From Lama guanicoe (lineage: Eukaryota): a DNA stretch of 64,000 bases. The stretch lies in NCBI GenBank assembly GCA_013239625.1, contig MU053860.1:1-64000 (forward strand). The letters are read 5' to 3'. Below are positions 11,062 to 55,165 of the stretch, piece after piece. The notes under the pieces were generated by a model. It was given only the letters and a program-made list of their open reading frames with translations. It was not told the DNA's origin and did no database searches. The number at the start of each line of letters is the position of its first letter. Within the stretch, counting starts at the first letter, position 1. The translations under genes were made by a program, and so were the position numbers.

Positions 11062-11311
11062 CTGCAATGAACTGTTCGTACACAGTGTCAGGGATGTTTC
11101 TGTTGAGATTTGAGAAATCAAAAAATCAGACCAGGGAATCCGGACCTGGTGGATGTCCAGGCTCTGTCAATGGTAGAAGCGGCCCCAAGGGGGTAGCACC
11201 AGCACCGACTCCTCCATTTTCAGCAGGGTCTTCAGTAGGAAGGTGATGTGGATACAGACACCCCTATGGAGGCTGAAGCCCTCTGGAGGGTTGACATCAC
11301 ACAGAAGGTAC
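11062..11311 (-). pseudogene. POFUT2: POFUT2 (protein O-fucosyltransferase 2) exon 2, unprocessed pseudogene copy
   Basis: Reads [82 protein letters not shown]. Human as recalled: [84 protein letters not shown]. Acceptor ccctgccag and donor gtaaga are intact. W->TGA at 11167-11169 and a 1-bp deletion in a T run at ~11122. Confidence 0.95.
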
Positions 11312-11579
11312 CTGGCAGGGAACAAAGGAGAGCGGGTCTTCAGGGCCAGGCCTCTGCACAGGAATCCTGGCTTAGATAAAACAGATACAACAGGAATCCC
11401 TGCACAGCACATGGCCTAGACTCAAGACACGTTCAGCAGCTTCTGGTTTGTATAGTGGAAGCACTGCCCACCCATCTCCATGTGGTCAATTACTTCGAGT
11501 CCGGGAGCACATGCAGAAGACATCTTGGCATCTGTCTAAAAGTGCTAAGCATCTGACTAGTACCTGAGCACCTGTTCTC

Positions 11580-12047
11580 CAGGGGCTCTCAAGCTTCTTG
11601 GCCTACAGACCCCTCTACACTCTTAATTACTGAGGACTCCAAAAGGCTGCTGTTTATGTGAGTTAAATCTATCAATAGTTCCTGTGTTAGAAGTTAAATA
11701 AGAACTTTAAGAAATGCTTATGGGTTCACTTAAAAATAATAACAACCTACTACATGTTACCATTAATACTCAAGCAAAAAATAAGTATATTTTTCTAAAC
11801 AAAAATCATTTATGAGAAGAATAGCAGTGATTTTAATTTCTGCAAATCTCTTTTGGACTGGTGAGAGCTGAATTCTATCTGCCTCTACATTCCCTGTTTT
11901 GTGATATCACATACCTTGTTTTCCCTGGAAAACCCCACAGGAAACTCGGGAGTGCAAGAGTGTGCAAAAGGCAGGTGACATACCGGCATTTCTACGAAAA
12001 TAGTCTTTCATCTCAGGGGCATCAGACACACTTTGATAACTGCTGCC
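11580..12047. mobile_element. hAT-Charlie (Charlie1a-like) DNA transposon fragment within POFUT2 intron 1
   Basis: CAGGGGCTCTCAAGCTTCTTGGCC...GACCCCTCTACACTCTTAA...TGAGGACTCCAAAAGGCT...TGTTTATGTG, ending CACACTTTGATAACTGCTG. Confidence 0.7.
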
Positions 12048-12499
12048 CTACCCTAGGCGAGACTCTACTACACAAGAGCCAGGCAAGGGTCCTGGCTTCT
12101 TTAATGAGTTACCACAGCCACACGCCTGCCTTCTCAGTGTTAATATTTCCCACAGCCTCCATTACTGCAGATGAGGATGTAATCCTCAACTGGGCCCTCT
12201 AATCCCAGAAGACTGCCAACCTTGAGAGGGAGGGCCCATCTACCATCCCTACACCCCGCACAGTCTATTTTGAGTCAAGCCCTAGATAACTGCTAATCGG
12301 CACCGACCCTTGTGTCTTATTCCTGAGGTTTATCAAAGGAACCAACAACTGGATGGAACTGCAATTTCCCTGCAGATAAGCAAGGCTGATAAACCACCCC
12401 ATTCCAACATCTGATTCTGGGGCTCTTCAAAACCCAGGAAAGGCCCCACTTCATAAAAGATGGGTACTCTGCCTGCCCTTCCTGGGGCGTTCTGGGAGG

Positions 12500-13330
12500 C
12501 TGCAGCCACGCAGGGCTACCCAGACTCCCGGTCCCAGCCCCAGCGCCCGAGGAGGAGGAAAGCCCGTGGCTGTGCCCCCGCCCTGTCCCCGCCCCCGCCC
12601 CCAACCCGCTCCCCGGCACCACAGCCCCTCCCCGACCAGCACACCAACCCGGATCCCACCCCGGTCCATGTCCAATGGCCCCGCCAATGTCGCGGCAGTA
12701 CGTTTACCGTCTGTGGAACGCCACCCCAGATAGGATGTCGGCTGCCGACTGACCAGGCCAGACCTAGTCGCCCGGCTGAGCAAGCCGCCATCCCCAGCAG
12801 CAAGCACTGCCGTGGTCCCGGGCAGCTGCACACTTTTGGAGCCCTCTGCACGTCCCAGAAGCACACGCTGGCCCGTGCGGAGTGGGGCGCCTGTAGCCAT
12901 GGTGACGCCGCGGGGCCCTCCCCTAGCGCTTGCGTCTGAGTCCTCCCGAGGCTAGACGTGAGAGGGCAGAACTTGCGGAGCCAATGGGAGCCAGGGCGTG
13001 GCCAGGACGGGGGCTGGGGGGAGGCTTATGGGACAGCTGGGCGGGGCCGGGGCGGGCGGGGCCGCGCGGAAGTCCTTACCTGCAGGTGGCACCGGCTGGA
13101 GGCTGGGGCGGTGCTGCCACCAGTGAGCGGGGCAGCGGGGCGAGGGCACCCTCACCTGTCCGTGTGCGGTGCTCAGTCTGGGCTCCGCAGCCTCCACTTG
13201 CACTGGACGTGGACCCAGGCTACTAGTGGGCAAGATAGAGGACTGAGCCCAGGCACGCACGGCTGGCCAGGTAGGGCACCTGAAGTGCAGATCCGCCAGG
13301 CCCACTGCTGGCCTTGAATTCGCGCTTCTG
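12500..13330. promoter_or_regulatory. CpG island / bidirectional-type promoter copied with POFUT2
   Basis: High GC and CpG density. RFX X-box-like GTAGCCATGGTGAC (12893-12906), CCAAT (12981), GC boxes (~13039-13062), ETS CGGAAGT (13067-13073). Confidence 0.8.
12708..12813 (-). pseudogene. POFUT2: POFUT2 exon 1 coding part, decayed
   Basis: The 3' half reads VWPGQSAADILSGVAFHRR|gtaaac (human FWPGQSAADILSGAASRRR), and an LLLG signal-peptide remnant lies upstream. The start codon appears as ACG (12811-12813), with deletions and frameshifts. Confidence 0.9.
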
Positions 13331-16300
13331 GGCAGTTTCCAAGAAGACGGGATCTGTCCCATAGGGCAGGGGTGCCAAATGCCGGGTTGGGTGCAGTCTT
13401 AAAGGAGAGCCACGGTGAGAGGGAGCAGAACAGCCCCTGTGTTGGTGGGGCTAGGAATTTGGGGTATGGGGTGGGGATGGTGTGTGCCATGCTCCCCAAG
13501 AACTCTCATCCCCAAGCAGGGGACCCTGCTCCCTCCACCCTTCACTGCATCCCCTGCCTTCCCCAGCACCACCGCCCCTGCCCCTGGAGTGTCCCATGAC
13601 CTCTCCCCACACCAGGCACTGTCCCTGTTACAGGTACTGAGCTCCTGGTGGTTCCAGCCCGAGGGTAGGGGCTGTATCTGACCAGTTAGGATGCCTGGAG
13701 CCTTTGTATGAAACCTCAGACCATAATGCAGCTGTGCACAGAGGCCCCTCAAACAGGATTCCCTGCATGGCCCTCCCCACCACGCACCCACAGTGCAGCT
13801 GCCACACCAAGCCAAGCCTGCCAGAGGACAGCTGGTTCCTCTCCTCCTGTCCCTGGTCAAGAGTGCACCGCCCACACTGCTGGGTATTTAGGGGGCCTTA
13901 GAAGAGCAGCTGGTATTTTCATGGGCAAATATTTGCTCTTTTGGGAAGATTTGGGTGCAAAGACATGTAGGGTATGCTTTTTCTGTTGCCCTGGAACTGG
14001 TGACTAGAATACAAACTTAAGTCAAAGTAGTTTTTAGAGAGATCTGCAAAATATCTAACCCAAAGATAACTGTTCCCCAACAAAGGCAACACCACCTGGC
14101 TGGTGGGGGGCCTGGACCCTCTTTCTGAAGGTTGGGGTTTGCACCTTCCAGCTGTGACAGCCTGAAACAGCTCTGAACATGCTCCAACAGGCTTTGCCAG
14201 CACAAACTGCCTTTATTTTGAATCTGGGTGAAGGAACCAGCTGAGAAATCTGGGTAAATCTTCCTGAGTGTAACCATGCCCATTATGCTGAATGAAAGAA
14301 CGGCTCTCCACATGCTAACATCTTAGAATTGAATGTGTGTCGAAGCCTTCATGCATGTAGCATGTTGGGAACAGTGTTTCATGGTGAGGGGAACTATATA
14401 ACTTACATGTGTATGGGGAAGCACTCGCTCGAACTGGGTATTCCAGTGCATAATGCCTTTATTTTGAAACTGGCTTCTCAGAAGACCTGTGGTCTCCACT
14501 GCAGGTCTGTCTCCAAGCCCAGGGCCAGCATGGTGACTCTGCTCCCCCTGTCTATTCTGGGAGGTCTAGGTGTACTCCATGGCCCTTCCGCCATTGTTTC
14601 TTTTGGAAACACCCTGCAGATGAAATGGACCTGAGAACAAGAGAGCTGGATGCCAGCAGCCACTGCCCAGTGTGTGGTTCCTGGGAGGGGCATCTCCTCT
14701 CCGTGGACTCTGATCTCCCTTCCCCCCACCCCCACCCCTCTCCTCCTGCATTTCCTGATTGATTCCGGGATAATGGTCAATACCAGGAATGACCTGGGAG
14801 AGGTTTTATGAGTCTTTAAGGGAAAAAAAAGAAATCTTTAGACAAATTACTGAAAGTAACTTCCAGCTTTCCCGGGAAAGTCTTTAATCCAGTGTTTAAG
14901 GCTAGTTGACAGGGTGTCAAATTGCCTAACCACTCACATCTGAGCAAGTGCTACTTCTCTCTCCAGTTCTCCAAAGCATCCACGTGTGGCAACTTGGCCA
15001 CAATAGGGCAAGAAAGCTCTTTCCCCAAGTCAGCGCCAGGGTGGCTTTGGAGGCAGTGGAGGCTGAGAGAAAGGGCCCCACCCTGAGGTTTGGGGGTCCG
15101 CCAGCCACAGCCAGAGGAGCGGGGGTTATCAGAGTGGCCCAGCAGGGAAACCAGGCAAGGCCGCCTGGCCCAAGTCTTCCCTCCCCAGAAAGCCCCATGA
15201 ACTGCTCTGGGCCCCACTCCCCAATTGGGCCCCCCTGCAAAAAGGTACCACAGGATCCACACCTGAGAAGGCAGAAGGACTGCCCTTTGGCCTGGGGTCA
15301 AAGCAGGTTTGTCCTGAGAGACCTGTGGCCACATATCTTCCTTGTCTCTCCAGGACACTGAAGGGTCTGTGCTGGGCACCTTGGTGATCAGGGACATGGG
15401 AATAACTCTAAACTCTGAAGAAGGACAGAGAGACTCTTCTGGAAGCAAGGATTCCAGGGAGACGCCTTGCCCAGAACTGGGGGACTGTGTCCTGAGTAGA
15501 CCCCTGGGAGGCAATGTGGGGCTGTGGGGTCCTCTTCAGAGAAGGGAGTGGGTGTGCTTTCTGGGGGTGGGGCCCTGCTTTGTCCAGGCATGTCCTTGTG
15601 TAAGACTCATTTACAAACACCTCCCAGTCCACCTAGAGGTGGCCCCAGGGGTGGGAGTAGAGGAGGAGAGTGAAAGGTGCAGACTTAGGGCCCCCTGACC
15701 CACACAGGGAGCCAGGGGTCAGTGGGAACATCTTGGGAGTCTAGTGCAGGGGTGGAGGAAGAGCACTAAGAACATACCAAATCATGCAATAAAGTGACCT
15801 GTGACCATGAGACACAGGTGGCTGTACACCAAAGGAGGGAGATAGAAATTTAGACCCAGTTTCTGAGAAACTTGAGAGGGGCTGGAGTGTCCCAGGAGCC
15901 CTCAGGGACAGCTCTTCTAGGGGCACAGATATCCCAATACACACATTTCTCATGGATGCTTTTTGGGGTGCAGAGTGAGTTACCAGGATCCTGAACTTAG
16001 TATGGAATCCCACCCCCTTTTTCATCACGCTTCCTGGCAATAAATTGCTGTCATTTGTCCCTGGACATGCACAGGGGAGCTGACTGCTGTGGGGGTCACT
16101 GCAGGACTAGAATCTTCTGCTGTGGGCTCTGTGACCACAGAAACCCAGGGGGATTTCTCAACGGGAGGACCTGGAGACCATGGCTGCAAGGACCACCCTC
16201 ATGGGATGGCCAAGAAGCCTGTGGTACCCAGGTCACCAAGTGACAAATTTGTGAGGTTTCCTGGGGTATCCTGGGGCATGTAGATTTCTGTGGTCAGCAC

Positions 16301-18699
16301 GTGGGCCCAGCACTGTGAGATGGTCTGCACAAAGAGGGGCCTGCCCTCCTGATGATGGCTCCTAACACCTGCAGGGAAACTGCTCCCAGGGCTCCTGGAG
16401 GTCCATATTGAGAGTGTCCTGCCAGCCATGTGGGGTCACCTTCCACTGATGCAGAGGCAGACCTCTCCCCCTTGAGGCCCAGGGGACACCTGGCTCAGGT
16501 CCCACCTGCATGCCCTGGACACGCAGAGCCCCACAGTTCTGGCACAGCCTTGGGTGTGGTCGTGTTGGGGCAGGAAAGGTGCATGGAAGGGGCTCATACA
16601 GGGGCAGAGACCACTCTGCAGGGATGCTGGACCTGGCAGTGATGCACTGCTTCAGAACTCCCCTGGGCTGGGTTTCCAAGCTGTGGGATGGAAGGGCCTC
16701 TCCTTCCTGCGGTGCAGTGGGGGGGACTAGATCCATAGTCAATGTCAGCCCTGAAAATGGAGGCTGCACTACATCCATTCCTGGAAAGAAAAATCAGGCC
16801 CCTCCAGTCCAGGTGACTCAGAAAGTCATTCAGCTATGTTCAGGGTCCCCAGTTTAGGCTTGCAATTAGAACTGAGTGGCTCAGGAGGCCAGCTCCCTGT
16901 CCGTGGCTCCAGGAGTAGGCTTTCTGCTGGAGGACAGGATCCCCACAAACACCTGTGTCTTTGTGGGACACTCCCCTCTGACCAACTGGGAGGCAGGGTG
17001 CAGTTGTGGGAAATCATGTTTCCATGAGCAGAGGACCACCTAGTGGTAGGGGCACAGGAGACTGTGAGAAAGAGTCCCGCAGGCTTTCTGGACTCAAAAA
17101 CCTGGCAAAGGTGAAAAAGTGCATAATTTGTTTTATTGAACAGGCCGCTTATGTACGTTTGGAGGGCCGGGTTCAAGGACTCTGCATCCCTCCAGGACAA
17201 TAGCCTCAAGAGAAGAACAGACAGAGCAGGAGGAGATCTGGGGTTTCTCCCAGGAATGAGGCAGAACAGGGATTTCTGCAGATTTGCAAGGACTCCCCAG
17301 TCACTGAGCTCGGGGTTACAACCCCTCGTGACCCCTGTCGTGTTTGGCTTGGGCTCTGGGTCTGGCCTGATCACGTATTCTTCCAGCTGAGTTCCAGAAA
17401 CTCAGAGGGTGGACTTATAGGGGCTGCGTTTGAAACCTAGTGAGGAGGTGGAGGACCCTTTATATTGAGTCCCTTCAGCCTAATCACCATAACTGAAGCC
17501 CAACACCCCCAGGACCCCAGGGTGGCCGTGGAGGGAGAGCAAGCCTGGCAGGCGACCTAGGGGCCCCAATGTTGTGTCCCTCCCTTGTCTTCTTTCCCTT
17601 TCACCCCAGAAGGTGTGATTGTCTCGTGTCATAGTGGCCACCACAGTGTCCCTCCCAGCAATCTCTCTTCTCCATCAGGTGGGGTTCCCACCCCCGCTCA
17701 GCCTTCTCTCTGCATGGATGCTGAAGGTGCAGGACCACCTGAAATTCTGAGCTTGAGCAGTAAGGTGGAAACAAAGAAACCAATTAAAACAAAGAAGCAA
17801 GTGATTGTGGCAAAGCTCCCCACCACAGAGAAGCTGCCCTGAGTGGAAGGGAGGGTGTGGGCATGCCCATTTGTTTCCTGTCTCCCAGTGCTTTTAGCTT
17901 TCTTATTGCAGACCTGCATGGTTACAACAAAATGATCTGCAAAACTGAAAATATTTACTTTCTCGCTTTTACAGAAAAGGCTGGCCAGCCTCTGGTCCCG
18001 GTACCAGGCAAGTGATTGGAGTTCCTTTCCAGTTTGGAAACATCTGGGCAGACCCAGGTTTGCAAAAGTCTTTAAGAGTAGTTATGGAGTTTTGTTTCTA
18101 AAATGTTTTATGGCTTTATATACTTCTGAGATGCAGTTGTGCTGTGTGATTCTGAGCCGGGATTTTCTCAAACTGTTTCTCACTTCTTATACCAGACATT
18201 CCTAAATTTCAAGAGGAACTGCATATTAAGGAAGCCATGGAATTTAGGAAGAGGATACAGATCTCATTTCCTTTTAAGCATCGATGTACCTCCATCATGG
18301 CAGTATTGGTTATGTGTTACTGATAGGGGAACTAAATAGTAACCAGATTAATAGAAAATAGGGGAATTTAGGTACACAGGTTCATCTTTTCAACATTTTT
18401 TTGTAATGTTTGCAGTTTAAGATCACCATTCCTGAGAAACAGGCAGCTTCTTAGATTGAAATAACATTTCCTCTGAATGATACTTAATTTTTATTTCATA
18501 GACAGCAGGAAGGGTAATCACACATCACACATTTGGGGGTGTCAAAGAGTAAATGTAACTTTCTGGGAGCGAACTCCTCTGTCTCCCCCTGCTCTTTTCA
18601 CTGTCCCATTCTCCCTGGATGGCTCTTTCTTATCTTCTGCTCATTGCTCCAGTAATTGTTTCTTCCCCCTCGTCCCTCAGCTGGTAAGGTTACTTTTCT

Positions 18700-21040
18700 A
18701 CTTTGAACAAGCAAACAAGACAACAGAAGAGAAATTTCACAAGCATCTCCCAGTACATCTGCTCGCTTTCTGATGTCTGTGATCTCACTCTCAGTGTCCC
18801 ACCTCTTATTACAAGTGACATCAAAAGCCAGTTCCTCCAAAAGTCCCCGGGGCACCATCCCTCCCATCTTCTCTGGGTTGTCATTCCCAGAACCATCCTC
18901 TCTTTCACTACCTCATCTATTTTGTTCTCCTGCTAGTTGGCTCCCATCAGTATATAAACGTCCATCCTCTGAAAAGAAACAAACAGCACTCCTTGACCCT
19001 AATTCACCCCCACCAATTGCCACCCTGTGTCTTTACAGCAAATCTTTAAGGAGTTGTTTAAATTCACTGTCTGCACCTTCTCTTGAGCCATCCCCTTTTA
19101 CACACACTCTGGCTTTTCCCCTGATCCCTTGCTCTATGGAAACTGCCCTGTCAAGGCCATCAGTGACCCCACTTTCCTAAATATAGTGGTCAATTTTCAG
19201 TCCTCATCATGCGTGGCCCCTCGGCAGCATTTGACCTAGCTCTTCCATCCCTCTACCCCCGTGTTCCTGCTTCACTCAACCTTCAGCCCATCGCTCTGTC
19301 TGCTTTTTGATTTTGGTCTACTGGCTGATCCTTTGCCAATGTCTCCTCTTTTTTCCAAACATATACTGTGGGTGTGCCCCAGGGTTGGTTCCTCTCCTCT
19401 CTCTCTCTGCTATTCCTTTGGTGGAAGCAACCCAGCCTTGGAAATTGGCATGCCATCAATTTCTCGATTTCTCCAAAACTCCCTGATTTGCCCTTTCCAT
19501 CTGGACCTTTATCCCTGAGACTCACATTCTTTTTCTTTCATTCATCTTGCTTTCACATTCATACATATGTTCTACTATGTAATTACTATTCCAAATTTTG
19601 AATCAGTACATATATATCATGTAAAATGCTCAAATCTGTATTATTTTCACTAAGATGCTTATTCTACCTTAGAACATGTCTGCATTTCTGTATTTATGTG
19701 AATAAAACGAATAGTATTTCTACAAGCCTCATAGTTAAACAGTGTGTTTGTTTGGGGCTATTATGTAACATGAAATAATGATACATCAACATAGTCCTTT
19801 TTCATTTATTTTTATGTAACATCGAGATGAGGTTTTTGCACTGAAGACTGGTTTTATTGAAATTTTACCTATGTTACAAACAGTCAGTTTGTAACATAAT
19901 AAAGCCCTCATTTCTCCCCTTTTCTGATATATTTTCCATTTGGCTATATAAAACATATACCTTGGAATGAAATAAAATTCCCAAATCATTCACATAATAC
20001 AATTAATACATTTAAATTATATTTTTATATGTTAAAAAGAAAAAGAAAACAGACTCCTCTACGTATTAGGCATTTCTGTGGCAATATGTAATACACCCCT
20101 TAAACATGACATTGAAGAACTGAGCTGATACCAGCCCCTTTCCACCTGCTCAGCCCCACCATGTCCCATACCCTGTGGATGGAGAGGACAGCCCTACCAT
20201 TGTCCAGGTCCAGATGTTGAAACCATGTCCTTTCTCTCTCTTTCTCTTACACACACAGACAGCAAATCCAGCTTGTTAGAAAATTCTGAATACTCTGTCT
20301 TCATTAACCACCTGCTCCCCGCCCTCCTAAGAGCCACCTTCAGCCCTTCCTGGACACCAATAGCCTCTTGTTTCCATCTTGGCTTTCCTACAATCTTTCA
20401 TCCACACAGAGTCAGAGGGAGCCTGTAAAAGCATACATTGAAGGGGTGGGTGTAACTCAGTGGTAGGGTGCATGCTTAGCATGCATGAGATCCTGGGTTC
20501 AATCCCCAGCACCTTCATTAAAATAAATAAATTACCTCTCCCAAAAAAACACAAACACAAAAGCATAAGTTGGACTACATCACTCCTCCCCTCAAAACTC
20601 ACTAAACGGGTCACAATTTCATTAGGAGCCAAAGTCGTCCCAAAGGCCTCAGGACCCGGCGTGCTCTGCCTCTCCGCCCACACTCTCCCCCTCACTCTGG
20701 GGGCCTCTGGCTCCGGCTCTTCCTTCTTCCTCCGGATCTATTCTGCTTCAAGTTCATTACTCCGTGAGATCTGCCAGGATTGCCTTATTCCCTCCTGCCT
20801 GCCTCCCACCCCACCGCCATCACCCGAGTTTGCTCATATCACTCTTTTTTTTTAATTTTTCCAAGCTCTTGCTACCCCCAACATGCTGCCTGTTTCCTCT
20901 GCTAAAACTCTGAGCCCCCAGTGATGAGGAGTCATGTCTATTTTGTTGACTGATAAAGCCCGAGAGCCTTGGGAACGAGTCTATTTAGGAGATTCTCATA
21001 CATAGTAGGAGCTTATACAGATTTGCTGAATGAATGTAGA
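18700..21040 (+). mobile_element. Fragmented L2 LINE, interrupted by an AT-rich block at ~19530-20100 and by a SINE
   Basis: CT-rich L2 motifs (GGAAACTGCCCTGTCAAGG, CAATTTTCAGTCCTCATC, GGCAGCATTTGAC) and an L2 3' end ATTTGCTGAATGAATG at ~21020. Confidence 0.7.
20442..20560 (+). mobile_element. tRNA-derived camelid SINE (Vic-1-like)
   Basis: GGGGTGGGTGTAACTCAGTGGTAGGGTGCATGCTTAGCATGCATGAGATCCTGGGTTCAATCCCCAGCACC (Pol III A and B boxes), an A-rich tail, and TSD-like AAAAGCATA on both sides. Confidence 0.85.
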
Positions 21041-24000
21041 TGCCCTGGTCCAATCCGATGGAACACTTCTGTGTCCTGCTCAAAGAATAACTCTCCTTTC
21101 CACCTGAGAGGGGGTGACAACTTCCCTGCTGATTAAAGGCAAGAACTTTTTGCTTTATGCTGTTAACCTTAGGCAGGGAGACTGGGGGCTCTTCATATAT
21201 ATTTTTAAATTTGGTTCACTCTGCAGTTGGTCTTTGGTCTCTGTATAATTTTGAGAAACTCTTTATGAGTGATCATTCTTTCATCAGATTGAACAGGGTC
21301 CAGGGGGAAGGACCAAGCCTGTCCCATTGGCCATTCTTTGTGTCATGCCCTGGGACCCAGTGGATGCTCAGCATGTAAGTGAACAGACAGGAGTGAGCGA
21401 AGAGATGGGAGCATCTCCTTATTGTGGTGGCTGCTCTCTGTCCAATGCCTTGAGATTTGGGGAAGGGTTTACAAGTGCGGAGGGGAGAGGTCAGGTCCTC
21501 TGTGCTCTTCCCAAGTGCCCTGGCCTTACCCAATCCCCAAGCCCCCTCTGGGTAGCCAAGCCCAGGAGCTGGGCCACCGGGGGTTTTGCTGATCAATAAT
21601 CCACCTTCTTCACCCCAAGTCCGGGGGTTAGGTACAACTGGTTGTAGACTCTGGAGTCAGGGCCTTGGAGAAATTCCTCACTGAACTATGTTTTGGACCT
21701 TTTATTTTTCTCTATAACCTCCAGCTGAAGAAGATTGTCTTAGACACATAAAAGGTGAGGACACCTACTATTCCCATGGAGCCCAGGTGGGGCTGGGAGT
21801 TTGCTGTTTGTACAGCCGGTGGGCTTGTGTTGCTTTGGCATCCCTGTGCCTGAATTCCTGTAGTACACTAGTTGGTAAGGATGGGGGTGCCTGGCAGGGA
21901 GGGAAGTGGTCCGGGAGACTGCACAGCTGGGGAGATGTTAACCTGGGGTGAGCAGGAGCCTGCTGATGCATGGCATCTCGGTGCAGGGAACTCTCCACAC
22001 TCAGAGAGGTTCCCACTCCCACAGGGGCCATTTGATCAGGGTGCTGGGCTGTCAGGGGACCACAGGGGTCCCAGTGAGGATTAGGGTGCCTTCAGGCAAT
22101 GGGAAGTGTGGGGTCCAGTGGCAATTGAATTAACTGTGCACCCAAACCCAGCCTCCACCTCTTTCAGCCTGTTTCCTAATCTGCAAAACTGGAATGATAT
22201 TAACCATCCTGCGGGGTTGTTGATGGGCTGGGACAGACTAGACAGTCAGGAGCTGGAATTCCTCTGTCCCCTGATTGTTTTCCTTCTTTCTGACTATTTG
22301 CTCTCACAAGCTCAGTCTCTCTGTCTCTCTCTCTTTCACTTCTAACTTTCTCTCATGCTCTGGTTTCATTTGATTTCCAACTACTGCCCCTCCCCCTCGC
22401 CAATCCCCAGATGAGTGAACTTGATTTCCGTGTATCAGTTCCAAATTCCCAGGAAAGATGCTCTGTCTCCCTCTGGATCTGTTGTCCAACCCACCAGTTG
22501 TGGCCAGAGGAGTGAGTCCTTCTGGGACCAGCGGAGGGTCTCTGCCCAGCCCACCATGCCACCAAGTGGGAGCACATAGCTCTCTGAGGAGGAGGTACTG
22601 GCTGTGACCTTGTGTCAGTCAGTATGAATTTATGTCTCCTCTTGCCCCACCTTCATCCTCCTAAACAAAGATGAAAATTAAACTCTCCCGGGATTTGTGT
22701 CATGTAACACTCAGGGTGGGGGCTAAGGGGGCTGGAATCTCTGCTGCATTTAAGGGGCTACGGTGAACCCCCAAAAAGTGTCTGCAAAGGGAACACCACC
22801 GGCCCCACCCGGCACTTAGGGTGCTGAGTCTGCGTGATGTTGAGCCAGGCTTCTGACCACAGCTCAGGGGTCTGTTCTGACCAGTTAGCCTTTGAAACCA
22901 ACCAGCTTTGGATTCCTCAATCCCTCCCTGAGGTTTTACCTGAACCACCAGCTTCTGTATCTCTGAAGACAGATGATGAGGACCCTTCACGTAAGCCATT
23001 GGCACAGCCCTGTGCAGGCCTTTGTGCTGCACGGTCTGCCTGGCAAGCTGACTGAGGTTGGTATCTTACTGATGTTAGAAATAGTCTGGTTTCCCGATGC
23101 ACTGTTTCACTGAACAAGCAACAGAAGCCACTTCTCCCTGATAAAAGCAAAAAAGGGACTTAATGAAAAGATACTAGGAGGGTGTGTGGAGTGGCCAGGA
23201 CCGGAGCCAACCCAGGAGCTGTAGGTGTTAGGGAGCCCCAGGCACCAGGCCGGGCGGGGTGCTACTGGGTGCCCTGCCACCCCAGGAGGGACACCCCTCC
23301 ACCCGACCCTCCACCTCATTCACTGCAGGTTCATGTCCTGGCAGGGCCAGGTCACACTGAAGCCACCAGCACACACCTCAATGGGGGAGTTGACTCCGTT
23401 TCAGCTGAGGTCGTGCCTGGTTTGGGGAGATGCCCAGTTAGAAGAAGGTGGCTCTCCTACTGTTCCGAGTTAAGGTGAAAGTCAGTGCCCATCACTCAGG
23501 AGAGCCAGACTAGATGGACCTCATTGTGGTGACTAGGCCGTCTGAGTTCACTTATTACTTTCTATGTTTGAAGGCCCTGGAGGGAGAAAAAGTGAAGGTT
23601 CTAGTACTTATTTTGTGTTTCCCATGTACCACGTGCAGTAAGCAAGCCACTTCAGACAAGGCCCAGAACAACTACGTTAATAGGCCATGGAGCAAGTCAT
23701 GCAGTCAGGCCTCTGTGGTCCCGAAACCCGTGTCCCCATCAGCTCCGTAGTTACCAGTGGAAACTGAGGGGATTTATGGGACTGTGTGCTCCTGTTGGGG
23801 CTGGGATGTGTGTGTTTAAATCCACATCTTCAACAACTCCGCTAGAACCACAGCCACTGATTGCACGGAGGCAGAGGAGGGGAGGCTTCCAGCCTCTGGT
23901 CCAGCTCATGTGGAGCTCATAAGTTGCTCCTTCTGTCCTGAAAAGAACACCAGTGCTGAGGGAGCTGCAAACCTACTGCTCTTTTTAGATCCCAGAAAAC

Positions 24001-25439: not shown

Positions 25440-25625
25440 TGTGGGACATGCAGGGGTGCAGGAGTGTACGCAGTGCAAAGGTGTAAGTGGTGGCAGGGGT
25501 GCAGGGGCTGTGGAGGGTGCAGGCATTTCAGGGGATGCAGGGGGTGCAGGTGTGCAGAGGTGCAGGGAGTGTAGGGGTGCAGGGAGGTGCTCAGGCACAT
25601 GGCCAGGATCAGAAGGCAAGTGCAC
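25440..25625. repeat. Degenerate GGTGCAGGG(G) minisatellite (CAGGG-rich)
   Basis: Repeated GGTGCAGG/GCAGGGG units of ~9-10 bp. Confidence 0.85.
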
Positions 25626-28160
25626 TCGCAGTCAGCCTGACCCCGGGAGGCTAGTGCAATGGTTTGGGGCGGCGGGGGCGGCGGAGGCGGTGTCACGTGG
25701 GAGGCTGCCCGGGCAAGCCGGTCGATTTCTTCTCTTCCCTGCAGCCTGGCCTGGGGGTGCCTTGGCTGCTAGAGATTCACCAGATGTTGGACTCCAGGTA
25801 AGCTTGCTCCTTGGAGGTGGGGCGGTTAGGTCAGCGGGCGGCGGCATAGGCAGGGGGGCAGAGCAAGGCTGCCCCTGGTGAACTGGTGGAATAGCTGCCT
25901 TCTCCTGGCTGCCGGGCCTGGGAGCGGCCTCTGCTGCTCCAGGTCACCAGACGCACCTGTCCCACTCAGCTTGCTGAGTGGGGAGTGGGGGCAGTGCCAT
26001 TAAGGTGCGGGTCCCATGGGGGAAGGGTGGCTGCCACATGGAAGCTGGTCAGTTCGCTCCGTTCTCCCCCGTGGTGGAGCCAGGGGCAGCTTCTGCTGCT
26101 CTATAGAGGCGAGACGTAGGTCTCCAGGTGAGCTTGTTCCTGGGAGGCAGCAGCGGCGCCAGGGGGAGGGGGGCCGTTCCAGGGAGCTTCTCCATTTCTT
26201 CTCTCCCCCTTGGTCTGGCCTGGGGGCGACCTCTGCCGCTGGAGATTTGCCTGAGGTCCGACTCCAGGTGAGCTTGCTCCTGGGAGATGGGTACAGTGCA
26301 GTCAGGGTCTGGTAAGGTGGTGGCTGCAGGGATAGGGAGGCTGCTTCATGGGAGCTTGTGGATTAGCTCCCATGTCTGTGCCACATGGCCTGCAGGTGGC
26401 CTCTGCTGCATCAGGTCCTGGGACACCCCTGTTCCAATTTTCCTTCTGGGGGCGGGAGGCAGGGTAGTCAGTGTGCAGGGGTGGTGGGGGTCGGGGGCCT
26501 GCAGCTGGGAAGTGGGCCCATTTGCTCCCATCTTCCCGGTGGCTTGCCCTGGGGGCAGTCTCTGTTGCCCTGGGTTACGAGACACGTGTATCCTAGTCAG
26601 CCTGACCCCGGGAGGCAGGCGTGGTACGTTGGGGGTAGTGGCAGTAGCGGTAGGTTTTCTCATGGAGGCAGTCAATTTGCTCCCATTTCCCCCCATGGTT
26701 TGCCCTGGGGGCGGTCCCTGTTGTCCCAATTTTGTTAGACGTCCATCTCCAGGTCAGCCTGCTCCCTGGAGGAGGCCACTGTGTGGTCAGGGGGCAGGAG
26801 CATTGGTGTTATGGAAACAACAGGCCAGACAAGAAACAAGCACCACTCGGAGGGTTGGAGTACTCAGATTTATGATGCCGGCGGGCTCAGAGGGGCTTCT
26901 GCTCTGAAGCTCTGAGCACCTCCAAGATGTGCACATGAGGTTTTATAGGGTTAATTACAAGTATGGGGCTATTAGCCAATAAGGCTCAAACAACAAAAAA
27001 CAAGGAATCAGTACACTGGAGCTTATCAATTTGGAACAGATCACGTTACTGACAATTGTTGAGCTGGGATTTACGAGTTAGATTGTTAGCCCAGTAAACT
27101 GACACTAAACTTCAGATTTACAAGTTAGCCCAGCAGAACTTAGATCAGTAAACCGACACTTATCACACTTGGATTTGTGACTTAGCTTGTTAGCCCAGCT
27201 GGGCTTTTCCTTCACAGTGGCTGCTGTGGGGGTAGGGAGCTGCCTTGAGGAGCTGGTGGATTGGCTTCCCTCTCCCCGATGGCCTGGTGTGGGAGTGGCC
27301 TTTCCTGCCCCAGATCACCAGACACACCTGTCCCATTGAGCCTGCTGGTGGAGGGGCGCACTGGGAGGTGTCTTTGAGGTGCAGGGGTGGGGAAGACTCG
27401 GGTAGAGGACCTGCAGCATGGAGCCTTTCAATTTGCTCTCCTCTTCCCCACGGCCAATCCTGGCAGCGTCCTCTGCTGCCCAAGAAGAAGGATGCCCGTC
27501 TCCATGTCAGCTTGCTCCTGGGAAGCGGGCGCGATTCGGTTGGGGGGTAGAGGCAGCTGCGACAGACTGCTGCCCCGCCTAATGGGGTCACTTCTTCTCC
27601 TTTCCCCTGACCTGGACTTGGGACGGCCTCTCCCGCCCAAGATTCGCCTGACACCCCACACCTAGTCAGGTTGCTCCTGGGAGGTGGGCACGGTGAGATC
27701 AGGGGGTGGAGAGGAGAGAGGGCTGTCTCTGGTGAACTGGAGGATGAGCCCCCATCTCTCTGGAGGCCTGATGTGGGGGCAGCCTCTGCTTCCTCTCGTT
27801 CCCAGGTCACCCTTCTCAGGGTCATATTGCCCCAGGGGTGTGGTAGGGTGCGGGGGCGGCAGGGTGTTGGCGGAGGTATGGAGCCTGCTGCTGGGGAGCT
27901 AGTGGTTTAGCTCCCATCTCACCTGCAGCTTGTCCTGGGGCAGCCTCTGTTGCCCCGGGTAGCAAAGCACAGCTTCTCTGACAGATTAGCCACCGGAGGT
28001 GGGCAGGATGTGCTGAGGGGGAGAAGGCAGCCGCCAAAGCAGCGACAGAGGGGCTGTCCCTGGCCAGCTGGTCAATTTGTTCCCATCTCAACCTTTGCTG
28101 CCTCAGTTTCGCAGGACACCATTTTCCAATTTATCCTACTGGGAGGTGGGTGCAGTACAT
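25625..28160. repeat. Diverged GC-rich tandem array, ~14 units of 140-170 bp
   Basis: Recurring anchor (C)AGGT(G/C)AGC(T/C)TGCTCCTGGGAGG at ~25631, 25798, 25965, 26128, 26268, 26436, 26596, 26753, 27336, 27506, 27665, 27821, 27984 and 28128. It is mirrored by recurring VSLLLG and PRSKLTW motifs in the ORF track. Confidence 0.85.
26807..27216 (-). mobile_element. Solo ERV LTR (410 bp) inserted in the tandem array
   Basis: TG...CA termini, 4-bp TSD-like flanks TTGG/GTGG, minus-strand TATA (CCTATAAAA at ~26940-26949), internal TTAGCCCAG repeats, and a sharp drop in GC relative to the array. Confidence 0.8.
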
Positions 28161-37805: not shown

Positions 37806-38819
37806 GTGGAGAATGCCTCTGGGTTTGAAAGATTGCCTGGAGAATGCTGAAACCCAGGGAAGTGGACAGCACAGACGTTAAATCATTAAATCCTGCCAGC
37901 ACAGTAGGAGATAGAGTCTACATATTCCTCACCATTAAAAGGCTAGGAAAAAGAGGCACAAATAAGTAAAATAATAACAACAACAACAATAATAATAATA
38001 AACATTTCACGAAGATTCACACAGAACTCCCCAGAGGCAGAGTGAGAATTTGTACTCAGGCAGGCTGGCCCCGGAGACCCTGCTCATAACTACTAAATAA
38101 AATGGCCTGGCTTATGTGGATCTTTTTTTTTCAACTGTGATATAATGGTACTGTGTCCAGTAACTTATAACTTCAAAATACCTCACCATAAGGGAATCAT
38201 TAGTCACGGGCATTACAAACCACAGAAAGCTAGACATTCAAAAATAACCTGTTAGGGCAAGAAAATCACTAATGTTTCTAAACATGATACGTGCTGAGCC
38301 TTTGCTGTAAAATGTTTATTTATAATTCTGCCTGGCTACAGAATAACTTCATAATACTGCATGTGGCTGGTGGATCACATCTTGGACAGCAAGGGGCTAG
38401 AGAACTTAAATGACTTGCCAAGCCTCACCCAGGAAGCTCATGGTGGAAACAGATCTACAATCTGGGACTTTTCCTTCTTATCCAGCAAGTCCTTCATGGA
38501 GGCTTAGAAGCTTCTCCTTTGGTGCCCAGCTGTCTATCCATGCTTATGACATCTTGTCATGAGTCCCAGCCTGCTCCTGAACATCAGCCAGTACACACTT
38601 CTGGTCTTTTCTGACCATGTAATATCTCTTAGCAATTTTGGTGACATCAGTTCTTATCTGGAAGGGTAGTTGCTAGAGATGTAAATGTGTCCACAAGAGC
38701 AGACTGACAGATTTTTCATAAACATAGTAGGAGTGGTCAAGGAAAGAAAAAGTCAGGAAGAAAGACCAGCAGAAGCAAGTCATTTAATATACCAAATGAA
38801 TATTTTCAATGTTTGGTTG

Positions 38820-39347
38820 TGTTACTGAGTCCAAACTCATTCTGCTCATTGCAGGACAGGTCAATAAATTGGAAGACCACGTTTTGTGGCAAGAAATAGC
38901 GTCTTTAATTGGATAGCCAGCTGACTAAGGAGATGGCATAGTAATTGTCCTGGAGAACCATCTTCCCCAGTCACAATTCAGGCTCCTTTTATATTAAAAA
39001 TGGGAAGGGGGTGTGCTTGGTTGTTGCAAATATCTTGGTGTAGGAATCCTTTGTTATTAGAATCCTTTGTTGTTGCAGCTGTCCACCTGGGTCAGATCCA
39101 TGTAAACCTCCAAAAAAACCAATGTTATTTTCTGTTCTGCAACATGTTATCTTTATAAGAATGGAAAAATGTTAATATCCTTAAAGGTCAAAGCCTTGAG
39201 AATAGGTTCTCCTGTGTATTTCAGGCTCTAGGCAACATTGTTTTATAAAAGGTGCAGAATCAACAAGACTAAGCCTCAGAAACAGCACAGGGTTAAAGTC
39301 AAAGAAAAAGATGTAATATGGAGTCAGATTTGTTCTTTCCTATTACA
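38820..39347 (-). mobile_element. ERV1-class solo LTR, copy A
   Basis: TG...CA termini. Reverse-complement homologue of 39998-40491. Confidence 0.8.
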
Positions 39348-39997
39348 ATAGTGCCATGGAGAAACCACTTTGGAGAGCTTTTTGTTGGGCCCTGGAGGCT
39401 TTCTCTCTCTGCCTCCGGGCATCTCTGTTGAAAACCCTTCCTAGGTGTCTGGCCTGCTGGAAACCCATTCCACCTGGTTTGCCCTGAAGATGTGTTCTCT
39501 TTATAACTCATTTATACTCCTAGGAAAACAGCTCAATAAAATCTCAATTGGTTTTCCACCAGCTCCCCTGGGCAGGGGTCAGTGATAAAGTATGTTATTA
39601 TAAAAAATATACATAATAAATGAAGTCATAAAACAGCACTGGGCACATAGGAGAGAGTCAATAAATGCTTCCTGGCTTAAAGCAAAAGTGACGGCTCAGT
39701 TTTCCATGGCTGCTGTACTTGCTGAGCTAGTTATTCCTTCCCTCCATTGCACTTTTTTTAACTGAAAAAGAAACCCATGCATATGGTAAAAAAAATTCAA
39801 ACAGCACAAAAATACACAAGGGAAAGGTTTCCCTCATCCTTTGTTCTCTCAGCCTTCCCTGGAGATGCCACTGTTTACAATCTTCTGTGAGATTTCCAAA
39901 TATTTTATGCACATTTCAACCTATGTATGTAAATTCCTGTAAAGTTTTACTTATTTTTAACCTAAAAGGATTTAAATCCTCAAGTGGCTTCTGCCTC

Positions 39998-40491
39998 GAT
40001 AATAGCAAAGAACAAATCAGACTCTGTATTAGATCTGTTCCTTTGACTTTAACCCTGTGCTCTGTTTCCTAGGCTTAGTCTTGCTGGTTCTGCACCTTCT
40101 GTAAAGCAATGTTGCCTAGAGCCTGAAATAGACAAGAGAGCCTATTCTGAAGGCTCTGACCTTTAAGAATATTAACATTTTCCCATTCATATAAAGATAA
40201 CAAGTTGCAGAATAGAAAATAACATTTGTTTTGTTGGAGGTTTACATGGATCTGACCCAGGTGGATAGCTGCAAGAACAAAGAATTCTAACAACAAAAAA
40301 TTCGTACACCAAGAAGTTTGCAACAACCAAGCAAGTAGGAAAGGATCCTGAATTCTGACTTGGGGAGATGGTTTTCCAGGACAAATTAGTTTGTAGGTCT
40401 ACAGAAACTTGCTATTCCATGCCCCAACACCTGGTCTCCTGATTTATTGACCTGTCCTGCATTGAGGAGAATGAGTTTGGACTCGAGAACA
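39998..40491 (+). mobile_element. ERV1-class solo LTR, copy B, inverted relative to copy A
   Basis: Shares TTTGACTTTAACCCTGTGCT, AATGTTGCCTAGAGCCTGAAATA, GGAGGTTTACATGGATCTGACCCAGGTGGA and GAATGAGTTTGGACTC with copy A in the opposite orientation. It has internal deletions. Confidence 0.8.
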
Positions 40492-40994
40492 CTCCTATCT
40501 ACATAGCAAGCTAGGCACTGGAACTGAGGACAGCTCTCCCACACTCGGGGACCTACTGTGAGCCCTTTATTGTTCCACTAAGGTGGAAAGTGGTTTACCC
40601 AGAAGAGATGGGGACTATGCACCGACACTCGGGCAGCCTGCTCTGTTTGGGTCTCTGAGCTTGTACCTCCCACTCCCTGCCAGCCCAACACCTGGGACAG
40701 TGCAGCTAAGGCAAAGATCATGCCTGCCTCAGTTTCCCAGCCTGTAAAAGGGGAGTTCATACTCTTCCCAAGGTAGTTCTAGGCGACAACACCTGTGGGC
40801 GTTTGGTTCCGGGAGCAACAGGAAACCCAGCTCCTCTTGGGGGCAACAGGTGTGATCCCTGTAGGGGTTCTGCAGGGCCTTTGCTGGAGGGCTTGAACAG
40901 GGAGGTGAAATTTGAGCTTCTGGCCTTGAGGGGATAGAGAAGGGCATGGAGGCAGGACTGGTGCTTCCTTCAGGGTGCCCTTGAAGGTAAAGCT

Positions 40995-41150
40995 TTTTCT
41001 CTTCATCTCTTCTACTCCCCTCCCCCTTCTCCCTCTAGATCTCTCGCTTCTCCTTGCTCCTCTTCTGTCCATCTCTCCCCCTCCACTTTTTGCTTCCTCT
41101 CCTACTCCTCCCATCTTCTCCCCCTCCCATCTTCTCCATCCCTCTATTCC
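40995..41150. repeat. CT-rich polypyrimidine tract
   Basis: Predominantly C/T for ~150 bp. Confidence 0.8.
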
Positions 41151-41900
41151 CCAGTGTATCTCGCAGAGCCCAGAGCCCAGAGCAGATCGCTGGCCCTCCC
41201 GCGCATGCCCACGGTTAGATGCCAGATGGACCACGGGTCTGAAGCTCCAGTTCCGAGCCAGGAATCAGCCCTAGTGGCTGCTTAGCTCTGTCGCCCGGTA
41301 GGCCTTTGGCTCCTGCCCCGGGTCAAGGCCTCCAGCTGTGTAAGTGGAAGGTTGGGGGCTCTGGGGAATTGGGTCCGGGTGTCACGGCCTGCGAGGGCTT
41401 GAGTCAGCGAGTGTCTAGCTGAGGGGCTCTCGCCAGCCCCCTCTGCATGTGCCACCTGCCCTGGCACCCAGGCCACACCTGTCCAGGGCTGGGTACTCAC
41501 CTGCCAGGGACATGGCCACCCCAGTCCATACCACGGCCCGCACCTGTCACCTCTCGCCCCAGCCAGGCTCCCCTCAGTCTGTGGCTGGTGCCCCCTTCCG
41601 CTCTCCCACCATGAGTCCCCTCCTCCCAGGCTTCCTCTCCTCGACTGCAGACCCCATCCCGCCCCTGGGCCTGTTGTGCCCCAGGCCGGTGGGATCTACG
41701 GAGCCGGGCAGGGGTGGGGACAGTGGCTGGGACTGGCCTCCAAGCGGGGCTGCAGCCCGTGCCCCCCACCACTTTCCCTGCCCCGCCACCCCTAGACTGC
41801 ACTCCTCTCCCTTTCCCTGTCCCCGAGGTCCAGCTCAGTGGCATGGATGCTGTTCCCTGGGGCTGAGATCCTCTGGCTGTAAAGCCCAGCTTCTCCTGGC
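41150..41900. promoter_or_regulatory. GC-rich region, probably a decayed CpG island or first exon
   Basis: High GC with residual CpG. Minus-strand GCCATGTCCCTGGCAG|GTGAGT gives a Kozak-like ATG and a donor at ~41495-41515. Confidence 0.35.
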
Positions 41901-42118
41901 AGAGACTTGGGAAAGAGATCGCCAATGCTGAGCATGCTTCTTTCTCCTCCCTCAGTGTTTCTGCCCCAGGTAAATACCCTTAATACTTTTTCTGTTATTA
42001 GGATGGTGGTGCTTGTTGATGTCACGTGTTTTTACAGTGAGCATGATCACAGTATTGAAAGCAGGGCTTGGTTCACTTAAAAATGAGCTGAGGAGTAGGG
42101 GCAGGGCTATACTTAATA

Positions 42119-45804: not shown

Positions 45805-45950
45805 TTTTTCTTTTTAATTTTTAATTAATTTTTATGGGGTAAATAAGTTTATTTTTTGTTTCATTTTTTTATTGGAGATACTTGGGATTGAACTGACGAC
45901 CTCGTGCATGCTAAGTATGTGCTCTACCACTGAACTGTACCCTCCTCCCC
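45805..45950 (-). mobile_element. Vic-1-like SINE
   Basis: GGGATTGAAC...ACCTCGTGCATGCTAAGTATGTGCTCTACCACTGAACTGTACCC, with a T-rich tail. Confidence 0.8.
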
Positions 45951-46366: not shown

Positions 46367-46935
46367 GGCCTGCGACATGAGCATTGCTGACTATGTGCAG
46401 TGTGCTGAGGACCACCAGACTCTCCCCATGGTGGTCCATCACATGGGGATTATCTTGGAAGAGAATCTCTTGTGCATCTCTAAACAGATAACCTCAGTGA
46501 GCCAGGTCAGGCTGTGAGGCTTCAAGCAGTCATTCTGTATCTGCTACAGGTACCACTACCCACACAAGAATGAGTAGGGAGTCTTCCAGACCCACTGAAG
46601 GGTCATGGGCCTCATCACCATCACTGACTGCTTGGCCAAGGACTGGCTGCAGGTCGAGGAGCTCCCTGTGCAGAAGAGCTGTGTGGCAACACGCAGGACA
46701 ATTTGTGGCTCTTCATCTTTGTGCTGAAGGGCGAGCTCGCTGAGCAGCTGCACACTGATGTGGCCTTTTACTCCAGCTACGAGGACTGTGGGACAGTGGA
46801 CTTCATTGAGTCGCTCTTCATCGCGTTTGAGTCCGAGCACCTGGACAGGGCCACCAACAATTTTGGGGACAAGATCCCCCTCCTCTGCATCCCATTTTAG
46901 AAGAAGGACTTGGTGGGACTGGACATAGACAGCAG
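46367..46935 (+). pseudogene. TRAPPC9: TRAPPC9 (NIBP) first coding exon, unprocessed pseudogene copy
   Basis: ATG at 46377. Reads [16 protein letters not shown]...EENL...SVSQVRL*...YRYHYP...FQTH*...GLITITDC...[74 protein letters not shown]. Human as recalled: [16 protein letters not shown]...[22 protein letters not shown]. Acceptor ttggcag (10 nt before the ATG) and donor gtaagc are intact. Several stops and frameshifts, and EKRIE is deleted. Confidence 0.96.
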
Positions 46936-47171
46936 GTAAGCCTACGTGGAGTCCCAGCCGCCCTGGCTGTGTGCCTGGGTTGCTTTCCTACATCCAGAAA
47001 GGGATCAGCAAGAAGGAGAGCTGTCTTGCAGCCAAGGGGGCAGGGAGATGCAGCCTGACGGTTTTCAAAGTTTTAAAAATGAATTCATCTTAAGTTCAGA
47101 GAGATCCATTTAGGGTTAGTTTGGATACTTACTCCCCCTTTCCAACCAAGACCCCTGGTGGGACCCCTGGA

Positions 47172-53400: not shown

Positions 53401-55071
53401 TCAGGACAGGTACTCCTGGTTTTGCTTCTGTTGTTCTACAGAAAGAAGGGGTCAGGATGGGTGATATCAGCTCTGTCTGTACATTTGAGACCCACCCCTT
53501 CATTAATTTATTCATAACATGCGCACTTCTGAGTGTGTAGGGGAGAGGGATGGACCCACTGTAGTAAGGAAATCGTACTTGCCTCTTGCAAGCTTAGCAG
53601 TTTCAGAAGTTGACCCAGTGTAGATGGTTCTAGGAACATAGCAGGGGCCCCTAACTAAAAGTGCGGGTGTTGGAGGCAGGGAAGGCTTCCTTTAGATATA
53701 GTGAAAATGAGCCTGGAGGAGAGTGGGAAGTAGCAGGTTGTCAGGGGGCCCCTGAGATCACTGGGGACCTGGGTACTGAAGTGAGGCTGGGCAATTAGGG
53801 GCAGGGGTGGGGGTGGGGCTAGAACTCTACTAGGGAACCCCTGAAGGGCTTGAAGTAGGGGAGTGATGTAATCAAATTTGTGTTTTGGGAACACTGCTCT
53901 GGTTGTTTGTTTGTGTGTCTGTGTGCAGTTGGGAACAAGGGGAGGGTGCCACCAAGTGAGAGGGTCATTAGAATACAATTCACAAGCCGGGAGATGACCA
54001 GTGGGAGAGGGGCATCGGGGCTGCCTGGGGACGGCAGGGGCAGTGCAGATGCAGTATCTCCTTATGGGGAAGGCTTGTTAGCAGGGCTGCCCTAGTGGCG
54101 CCTTGTGGCTGGAAGAAAACAGATGGAGGCCTCCAGGTGGACTTTCCTCTTCTTCCCTGCCTTGTATGATGATCTTTGCTCAGCCAACATTTGGAACAGA
54201 AGAGCTAAGTTCCAAGGTAGCCCAGGACTTTGTTGAGCTCGTTTGAGTGAGATCTAATCGGATTTATGTGTGTGATGAGATCTGCACGTTCACTTAGATA
54301 GAAATGCCCCATCTTTTGGATTTCCATAGGTGTTTTAATTCTTGATAAAAATTGCTTTCTTGGTGAGAGGAAATTGAATGCAGCTACTGTTTTTCTCAAA
54401 AAGAAAATCTTATTTTTAAAGAAATTTAATATTCAAAAGAATAGGAATATTTAAAAATGATAAAGTAAGTCTTTGGTGTAATTTCTTTGGTTTCTGAGTT
54501 GATGTGGAGTTAGAGCCTTTGCATTACTTAATAGCACATCCTTGTCAGTATTTAAAGAGCTGTTAGTGAGTGACCCAGGCCCCACCTCTCAAAGCATCAC
54601 TAAAGCTTGCTCTGAAATAGTGAGGTCATAAAGGTATTGTTTGCAAAATCCAAAGAGTTGGTTTATAATATGCAGCATAGCTCTCTTTATAAAATAATAA
54701 AAGGCTCAAAATTAAGAAATTGGAACACAATTGATTTTTTTTTGAAGCTGAAAGATATTCTTGTGCTAATGTTGTGACTGGAAATTTTGGAAAGAAAAAT
54801 CCTACAGTAATATTATGTATGTGAAATACATATAAGCCTTTCATGTTTGAAAAATAACTACGCAGTGTTTTTCTAAGTCAGGACCATTCCAGCTCCGATA
54901 CTGGTAGTGATGGTTGCTGGTTTTCAATAGCAGAGCCTAAATTTACCTTCTTTGATTTTTTTTTTTGTAGTGAGAGGATTGAGTAGAGCTTTGCCAGCAT
55001 GATTTTGGGGCAATTTTGGGGCAGACGTCGTGCACCAGCAATGAGACATTTCTTTGCATTTTACTTTCTGG

Positions 55072-55165
55072 ACATCACCTGGCTGGGATGCTGTAGGACT
55101 CCCTGGTCCATCACCATTTGTCCTGGAGCTGCTCCAGACAGTGAATGACTTTCTGTGGCTTGGAG
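55072..55165 (+). pseudogene. TRAPPC9: TRAPPC9 second coding exon, decayed
   Basis: ACATCAC/CTGGCTGGGATGCTGTAGGACTCCCTGGTCCATCACCAT...GAGCTGCTCCAGACAGTGAATGACTTTCTGTGGCTTGGAG reads AGML*DSLVHHH../[13 protein letters not shown] (human [28 protein letters not shown]). The KKRCQGRMRKHVGDLC segment is deleted, and both splice dinucleotides read GG. Confidence 0.9.

Follow-up and report, generated by a model that had tools for sequence, protein, structure and literature searches.

A guanaco contig with a probable copy of an old camelid mosaic duplication joining parts of POFUT2, MRAP2 and TRAPPC9

The window, i.e. the whole analysed stretch of 64,000 nucleotides (positions 1 to 64,000 of Lama guanicoe contig MU053860.1), very probably holds one copy, now in neutral decay, of a mosaic segmental duplication that is specific to camelids and spans at least 51 kb, with incidental chimeric transcription. 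It carries exons 1-2 of POFUT2, the last exon of MRAP2 and coding exons 2-3 of TRAPPC9, each flanked by intron sequence and disrupted (Table 1), while the human POFUT2, MRAP2 and TRAPPC9 genes lie at 21q22, 6q14 and 8q24. Since the same mosaic, with shared lesions, is found on many scaffolds of four camelid species, the window would represent one copy of a duplicon that was amplified after its assembly. The first-pass annotation had described three truncated, intron-flanked and disabled DNA-level fragments, a description borne out by the splice sites, stops, frameshifts and absent exons reported below. Its further proposal of a camelid duplication sink fed by several donor loci holds as regards disabled camelid copies of unlinked genes, but the window itself need not be the acceptor.

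Table 1. Positions of the gene pieces, repeats and shared segments in the window
Feature	Position	Strand	Remarks
Flank left of POFUT2	4223-7962	-	tblastn: P0048, P0049, P0055, P0057, P0205, P0214, P0215
Presumed LINE-1-like 3' part	8990-10590	+	at or near edge of POFUT2 piece
POFUT2 exon 2 copy	11062-11311	-	AG acceptor and GT donor intact; 1 stop, 1 frameshift
CpG island, partly decayed	12400-13400	-	GC 68%, CpG observed/expected 0.57; contains POFUT2 exon 1 remnant
Spacer shared with other copies	14181-23362	-	models P0215, P0210, P0054
Degenerate TGCAGGGG tract	25449-25584	+	~16 copies, 136 bp; 7 CAGGG on one strand; heads array
Decayed tandem array	25600-28170	+	GC 60%; ~15 units of ~160 bp; between POFUT2 and MRAP2 pieces
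LTR-like insert, TG...CA ends	26807-27216	.	splits array
MRAP2 last-exon copy	about 29955-30344	+	match starts at exon boundary behind intron-type pyrimidine tract
Short linker segment	36025-36132	+	past MRAP2 exon in dromedary model; ahead of TRAPPC9 in Bactrian and dromedary models
Inverted LTR-like pair	38819-40492	.	81% over 530 nt; just ahead of GC step into TRAPPC9 piece
GC-rich (62%) region	41061-41990	+	exons of other copies' gene models fall here
TRAPPC9 exon 2 copy	46367-46935	+	ATG at 46377; acceptor and donor intact; 4 stops and frameshifts
TRAPPC9 exon 3 copy	about 55025-55165	+	~8.1 kb past exon 2; frameshift, stop, GT donor lost
Presumed LINE-1-like 3' piece	59096-60421	-	near expected place of TRAPPC9 exon 4

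The search of the window by tblastn with the three parents, POFUT2, MRAP2 and TRAPPC9, gave 101, 150 and 113 bits, compared to best scores of 27, 25 and 30 bits on 20 locally shuffled windows. Taken alone, the matches of POFUT2 exon 1 (34 bits) and TRAPPC9 exon 3 (29 and 25 bits) are near the shuffled level, and it is from their place, strand and order that they draw support. The POFUT2 piece is on the minus strand and the other two are on the plus strand, POFUT2 and MRAP2 pointing away from one another. The POFUT2 exon 2 copy, whose stop reflects a Trp-to-stop change, matches human POFUT2 in PDB entry 4ap5 (E 5.7e-28), and an intron 1 of ~1.4 kb separates it from a remnant of exon 1 with a GT donor at 12708, in which 17 of 22 amino acids are identical to alpaca POFUT2 (E 1.7e-7); no match to exon 3 onward was detected in the window. 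In other copies, gene models use segment 13077-13366 of the CpG island as an exon lying further upstream. Besides, the SGDE residues of exon 1 are found in the alpaca parent, six copy models and one deer, the other 57 orthologue rows being different, which points to a donor of the camelid lineage.

In two frames, the MRAP2 copy has an identity of 83% and 74% with the camel parent. It bears a 3-nt and a 1-nt deletion as well as a damaged acceptor, the shifted frame being common to other copies, and poly(A) signals lie ~1.5 kb downstream of it; MRAP2 exons 2-3 were not found in the window. The TRAPPC9 exon 2 copy shares one frameshift and a one-codon deletion with the other aligned copies, and exon 4, absent here since the window contains no match to exon 4 onward, occurs in other copies (model P0044). 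The 41-kb GC-rich region could correspond to the decayed TRAPPC9 promoter and first exon. In exon 2, the window is identical to the bird protein at 50 of 98 positions, compared to 59-66 of 96 for the main annotated copy subfamily, and to that subfamily at 51-54 of 97. The TRAPPC9 copies fall into two deep subfamilies, the window's being the more decayed, and this piece may be older than the rest or have a separate history. Regarding domains and folds, a Pfam scan of 14 targeted translations returned O-FucT as its sole match, a weak one (E 0.0099), and the TRAPPC9 and MRAP2 pieces had no match in the PDB search.

As in unprocessed pseudogenes, introns separate POFUT2 exons 1-2 and TRAPPC9 exons 2-3, and stops, frameshifts and missing exons affect the POFUT2, MRAP2 and TRAPPC9 pieces. 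Two candidate origins were rejected in this context. The retained introns, with no retrocopy structure, exclude retrocopying, and the presence of the parent genes elsewhere in camelids excludes gene loss in place. Intact or full-size parents, which the first-pass annotation had presupposed, were indeed located for the three pieces. POFUT2 is full length in alpaca (XP_072826473, 429 amino acids, on a 124.7-Mb scaffold), and MRAP2 is represented by XP_032340435 and XP_074224767 in camel, with the conventional exon 3-4 isoform in three camel species. TRAPPC9 is known as an annotated dromedary locus of at least 300 kb, which spans at least 38.36-38.67 Mb of chr25, MRAP2 being located near 15.9 Mb of chr8 (PMC13564503, supplement). 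The donors are therefore unlinked, as in a mosaic duplication, the MRAP2 and TRAPPC9 parents mapping to dromedary chr8 and chr25, and that of POFUT2 to the alpaca scaffold of 124.7 Mb. The closest proteins of the pieces all belong, where named, to Camelus or Vicugna.

Between and around the gene pieces, several segments are likewise shared with other copies. The units of the tandem array have a median identity of 55% (13 units aligned), and three of them contain CAG|GTRAG splice donors, two of which alpaca gene models (P0002, P0029) connect with the MRAP2 exon; the TGCAGGGG tract at its head may be due to chance or derived from a donor. Other camelid copies splice POFUT2 exon 2 to segments matching 7708-7962, 6139-6249, 5236-5355, 5001-5174 and 4223-4279, and the left flank is therefore part of the common block. 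In the same line, 14181-14283, 18805-18965 and 23247-23362 start POFUT2-like models from the wild camel, a MetaClust record and the Bactrian camel, respectively, while the linker segment is matched by P0025 (22 of 36 amino acids, E 1e-6) and by P0045 and P0169 (90%). An inverted repeat (35572-35831 and 36455-36705, 71% over 265 nt) surrounds this linker exon. Between the element at 8990-10590 and its inverted counterpart at 59135-60417, both of which are taken here to be LINE-1-like, identity is 75% over 1301 nt, and no convincing target-site duplication was seen at the former, the best match being 6 nt. The position of such LINE- and LTR-like elements near the putative donor edges fits with repeat-mediated joining. 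Finally, telomere repeats, looked for as two or more in a row, are absent from the 64-kb window, and the Rfam search revealed nothing beyond a tRNA-like SINE head.

All three pieces are multi-copy in the dromedary, the Bactrian camel, the wild camel and the alpaca, with 4-10 scaffolds per record set, these counts being minimum values, as they include only open frames that have been annotated. In terms of distinct scaffold lengths, there are at least 10 in the alpaca, 7 in the wild camel and 5 in the Bactrian camel, and at least 6 and 4 in the two dromedary record sets, a few rows having been placed in an assembly without accession check. Residues specific to the copies make it possible to tell them from the orthologues. 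Among 35 MRAP2 matches, nine carry 8-10 of the 10 copy-specific residues (eight from named camelids, one unnamed), and among the best 120 of 134 POFUT2 matches, 19 carry 6-8 of 8, all from named camelids, whereas 101 carry 0-1. As to TRAPPC9, 9 of 10 matches are camelid models annotated as 'like' or uncharacterised.

In the MRAP2 tree, computed from 27 proteins and the window (11 named orthologue matches, all included in the residue count, were left out), 12 copy rows fall on one side of a branch with a support of 100/99 and a stem of 0.15. Out of 100 columns, 13 are derived in the copies (one of them also in whale and sheep), compared to 11 private to the window. This tree does not put the copies as sister of the camel parent, although such a placement is not rejected (p-AU 0.33). 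The POFUT2 tree comprises 44 proteins and the window, whose row was left blank in the middle, without P0046, P0055, P0061, P0139, most orthologues and the alpaca parent; it groups 23 copy rows (SH-aLRT 100, stem 0.14), and the window is nested in a 10-row subclade rather than basal. That the MRAP2 and the POFUT2 copies each make up a single clade with shared lesions, and that POFUT2 subclades mix alpaca and camel, indicates a single assembly of the block followed by amplification ahead of the species split. More precisely, three of the five POFUT2 subclades contain both alpaca and camel rows, so that amplification began before the separation of Old and New World camelids, placed at more than 11 million years (PMC13751797). 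The similar stems further suggest that the MRAP2 and POFUT2 pieces left their parents at about the same time. Absolute dating was dropped, as an alpaca-camel calibration gave, by hand estimate, ages older than the artiodactyls, probably due to CpG decay and biased sampling.

The copies are about 83-85% identical as protein. When the words of 21-31 kb were compared with public runs, 20 of 24 rows contained part of them and none contained half, the best share being 0.24, and hence none displays this exact copy; from this share and the protein identity, a DNA identity of roughly 92-96% among the copies is suggested, while that of the pieces to their parents is probably below 90%. The operational definition of segmental duplications asks for at least 90% DNA identity between copies (PMC2566985).

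As regards selection, the mean BLOSUM62 score of variants in the three copy families is -0.30, -0.73 and -0.51, compared to -0.40, -0.70 and -0.25 under a neutral model (P 0.33, 0.59 and 0.86), whereas orthologue means of 0.18 and 1.0 are unlike this model (P < 0.001). Amino-acid changes among the copies thus look neutral-like in all three families, and the positive selection of a core duplicon is not apparent, in what is a weak test and not a dN/dS measure. The window copy itself would make no working protein. MRAP2 is a regulator of energy balance, and it could be imagined, although this is an unlikely scenario, that the array and its outward POFUT2 and MRAP2 arms form a true non-primate core duplicon, i.e. 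a germline-active seed of two-way transcription that, over tens of millions of years, would have driven duplication between camelid chromosomes, recruiting new donors and producing chimeric RNAs, MRAP2 3' ends by the dozen among them, by which the parent genes would be tuned.

Still less probable is a functional core duplicon in which the array would drive selected chimeric transcripts or short proteins, or RNAs regulating the parent genes. Such a role would fit the multi-isoform gene models of other copies, as many models with numerous isoforms are present at NCBI (at least 15 in one Bactrian cluster), the array-unit splice donors joined to MRAP2 at two alpaca loci, and the first ~96 TRAPPC9 codons, which are open in 15 of 15 aligned subfamily models. 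Nevertheless, open frames are expected by ascertainment, because only open models are listed, and the neutral-like changes in all three families, together with the stops, frameshifts and two damaged splice sites of the window copy, argue against it. A further point against it is the lack of any MYB-type motif, searched in what is presumably its usual form and considered also for a piRNA-cluster reading, in the three GC-rich regions (CpG island, array and 41-kb region). Six rows of public RNA runs contain 0.06-0.10 of the words of 21-31 kb, and this was not taken as evidence of expression.

An equally improbable reading is that several real copies were collapsed, or joined into a chimera, when the contig was assembled, in which case the family would be real and the exact three-gene order an artefact. 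A run of 60 N lies inside the mosaic, between the MRAP2 piece and the 36-kb segment, multi-copy DNA is liable to collapse, and both the best public-run share mentioned above and the long private branches would agree with it. However, gene models of other assemblies bridge most junctions with the segments in the same order and strand as in the window, and this agreement involves independent dromedary, Bactrian and alpaca assemblies. P0054 (Bactrian) joins 23.3 kb to POFUT2, and wild camel, dromedary and alpaca models join POFUT2 to 4-8 kb; P0002 (alpaca) runs from 25.3 kb through the array to MRAP2, P0025 (dromedary) from MRAP2 to 36 kb and hence across the N run, and P0045 and P0169 (Bactrian and dromedary) from 36 kb through 41 kb to TRAPPC9 exon 3. 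The interval 23.4-25.3 kb is bridged by no single gene model. On a 912,551-bp dromedary scaffold, KAB1252349/50 (MRAP2, partial) and KAB1252352 (POFUT2, partial) are near-consecutive. Each piece is found on several scaffolds, with co-occurrence outside the window seen for pairs of pieces, among them TRAPPC9 and POFUT2 within 50 kb of one chr14 SNP in a dromedary association study (PMC10357240), and individual copies may hold fewer than three. Judging from these predicted proteins, whose gene models can link exons over wrong distances, the junctions are probably not unique to the guanaco contig. Exons are repeated or out of order in P0040-P0042 and P0187-P0196 (alpaca) and in P0036, P0046 and P0047 (camels), and such models indicate that, elsewhere in the family, TRAPPC9 and POFUT2 pieces are probably arrayed in tandem.

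Least probable of all is that the window is the acceptor sink where the pieces landed independently, other copies deriving from its parts or having a separate origin. In its favour, the GC content steps at roughly 28 kb and 40-41 kb, as separate donors would produce, the window tip branches are long as an old resident copy might show (MRAP2 0.13 compared to a median of 0.065), and divergence is highest in the TRAPPC9 piece. The nested position of the window in the POFUT2 tree and the junction-bridging models on other scaffolds in three species speak against it.

The preferred reading of a pre-assembled and later amplified duplicon can be pictured in three steps. In a stem camelid, POFUT2 from its promoter to intron 2, the last exon and 3' flank of MRAP2, and the 5' part of TRAPPC9 would have been moved by duplicative transposition, which would have set them beside a GC-rich tandem array. 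The joined pieces would then have undergone decay within one lineage, over a period about equal to that of the later amplification. In a second step, seen at the level of predicted proteins, the joined block was copied to many chromosomes, beginning before the split of Old and New World camelids and most likely via non-allelic recombination among repeat-rich regions. Finally, as the data partly indicate, the copies would mutate neutrally, drop or tandemly repeat parts, and yield chimeric spliced RNAs through transcription that starts near the array and runs outward on both sides, a picture drawn from gene models and not from reads.

Among known systems, the primate mosaic duplications with core duplicons such as LCR16a/NPIP (Cantsilieris et al. 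2020, PMC7419210) likewise join intron-bearing parts of unlinked genes, and they resemble the camelid block in their duplicative transposition to several chromosomes, their GC-rich donors and their chimeric transcript models. By contrast, the camelid block is far older and more decayed, as reflected by its protein identity, and displays neither a sign of positive selection nor an intact gene family. The CHEK2 duplicon of the CAGGG-associated pericentromeric duplications of apes (PMC2566985) is likewise a truncated, intron-bearing gene copy present on many chromosomes; it has CAGGG-type repeats nearby, while the camelid array is headed by the TGCAGGGG tract, of 136 bp only. Closer in terms of species, Mendoza-Cerna et al. 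(2026, PMC13751797) reported pseudogene-rich repetitive blocks on alpaca chr11, 17 and 36, which similarly contain fragmented multi-copy gene pieces between GC-rich repeats and reflect segmental duplication followed by decay. The pieces in these blocks come from NEK10, ATF5, FMN2, ACTB, uS3m and ABHD17A; the blocks are local and, as reported, have no counterpart in camels, whereas the POFUT2/MRAP2/TRAPPC9 family is dispersed and common to camels and alpaca. TRAPPC9 does not occur in the main text of that article, nor do the three gene names in its text supplement, and the accessible sections of PMC6598621 and PMC7288448 contain nothing on POFUT2, MRAP2 or TRAPPC9. No published account of this camelid family was found in the literature covered, most subscription journals being beyond that coverage. 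The block would be an old primate-style mosaic duplicon family, of a structural type already known.

This family could matter for camel genetics, as duplicon copies annotated under the names of their parents can mislead gene mapping and annotation. In dromedary association studies, TRAPPC9 and POFUT2 were both reported within 50 kb of one SNP for pin width at chr14:31.08 Mb (PMC10357240), and TRAPPC9 for daily gain at chr14:31.37 Mb (PMC8027435). Since TRAPPC9 proper is located on chr25, the chr14 signal is probably that of a duplicon copy. The candidate genes on chr14 need rechecking, and so perhaps do the SNPs, which might be paralogous variants mapped to the wrong place. Other rows of the PMC10357240 table likewise mix genes of different regions. 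In its Table 2, SUPT20H is given at a distance of 12 kb from the chr14 SNPs of TRAPPC9/POFUT2, and numerous hits fall within 0.3 Mb of the start of chromosomes 6, 7, 16, 17 and 25, a pattern that mis-mapped duplicated DNA might produce. The MRAP2 sweep on chr8 (PMC13564503, 2 of 14 rows), for its part, appears to concern the real gene. More broadly, and unlike the alpaca-only blocks published so far, this mosaic duplicon family is common to all living camelid groups, and it provides a second mammalian lineage for testing if the growth of mosaics is driven by cores, by GC-rich repeats or by acrocentric arms.

Further segments of the window deserve mention. On the plus strand, the AT-rich segment 57950-58100 resembles an exon, with an acceptor-like site and a GT donor, and may stem from another donor gene; the PDB search with the three plus frames of 55.2-59.1 kb gave no match. 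On the minus strand, 3880-4950 is an exon-like segment ending in a GT donor, for which one of the three minus frames was searched and gave three matches, all unnamed, with 70-80% identity to an unnamed Logan protein and 42-54% to an unnamed ENA protein; an Atlas search with the tail of model P0051 gave nothing at or above 0.9. Finally, tRNA-derived SINE copies, presumably of a camelid family, are located at 20446-20560, 45860-45945, 57130-57210 and 63500-63610 and are 63-80% alike, and SINE presence or absence among the copies could give the order of the duplications.
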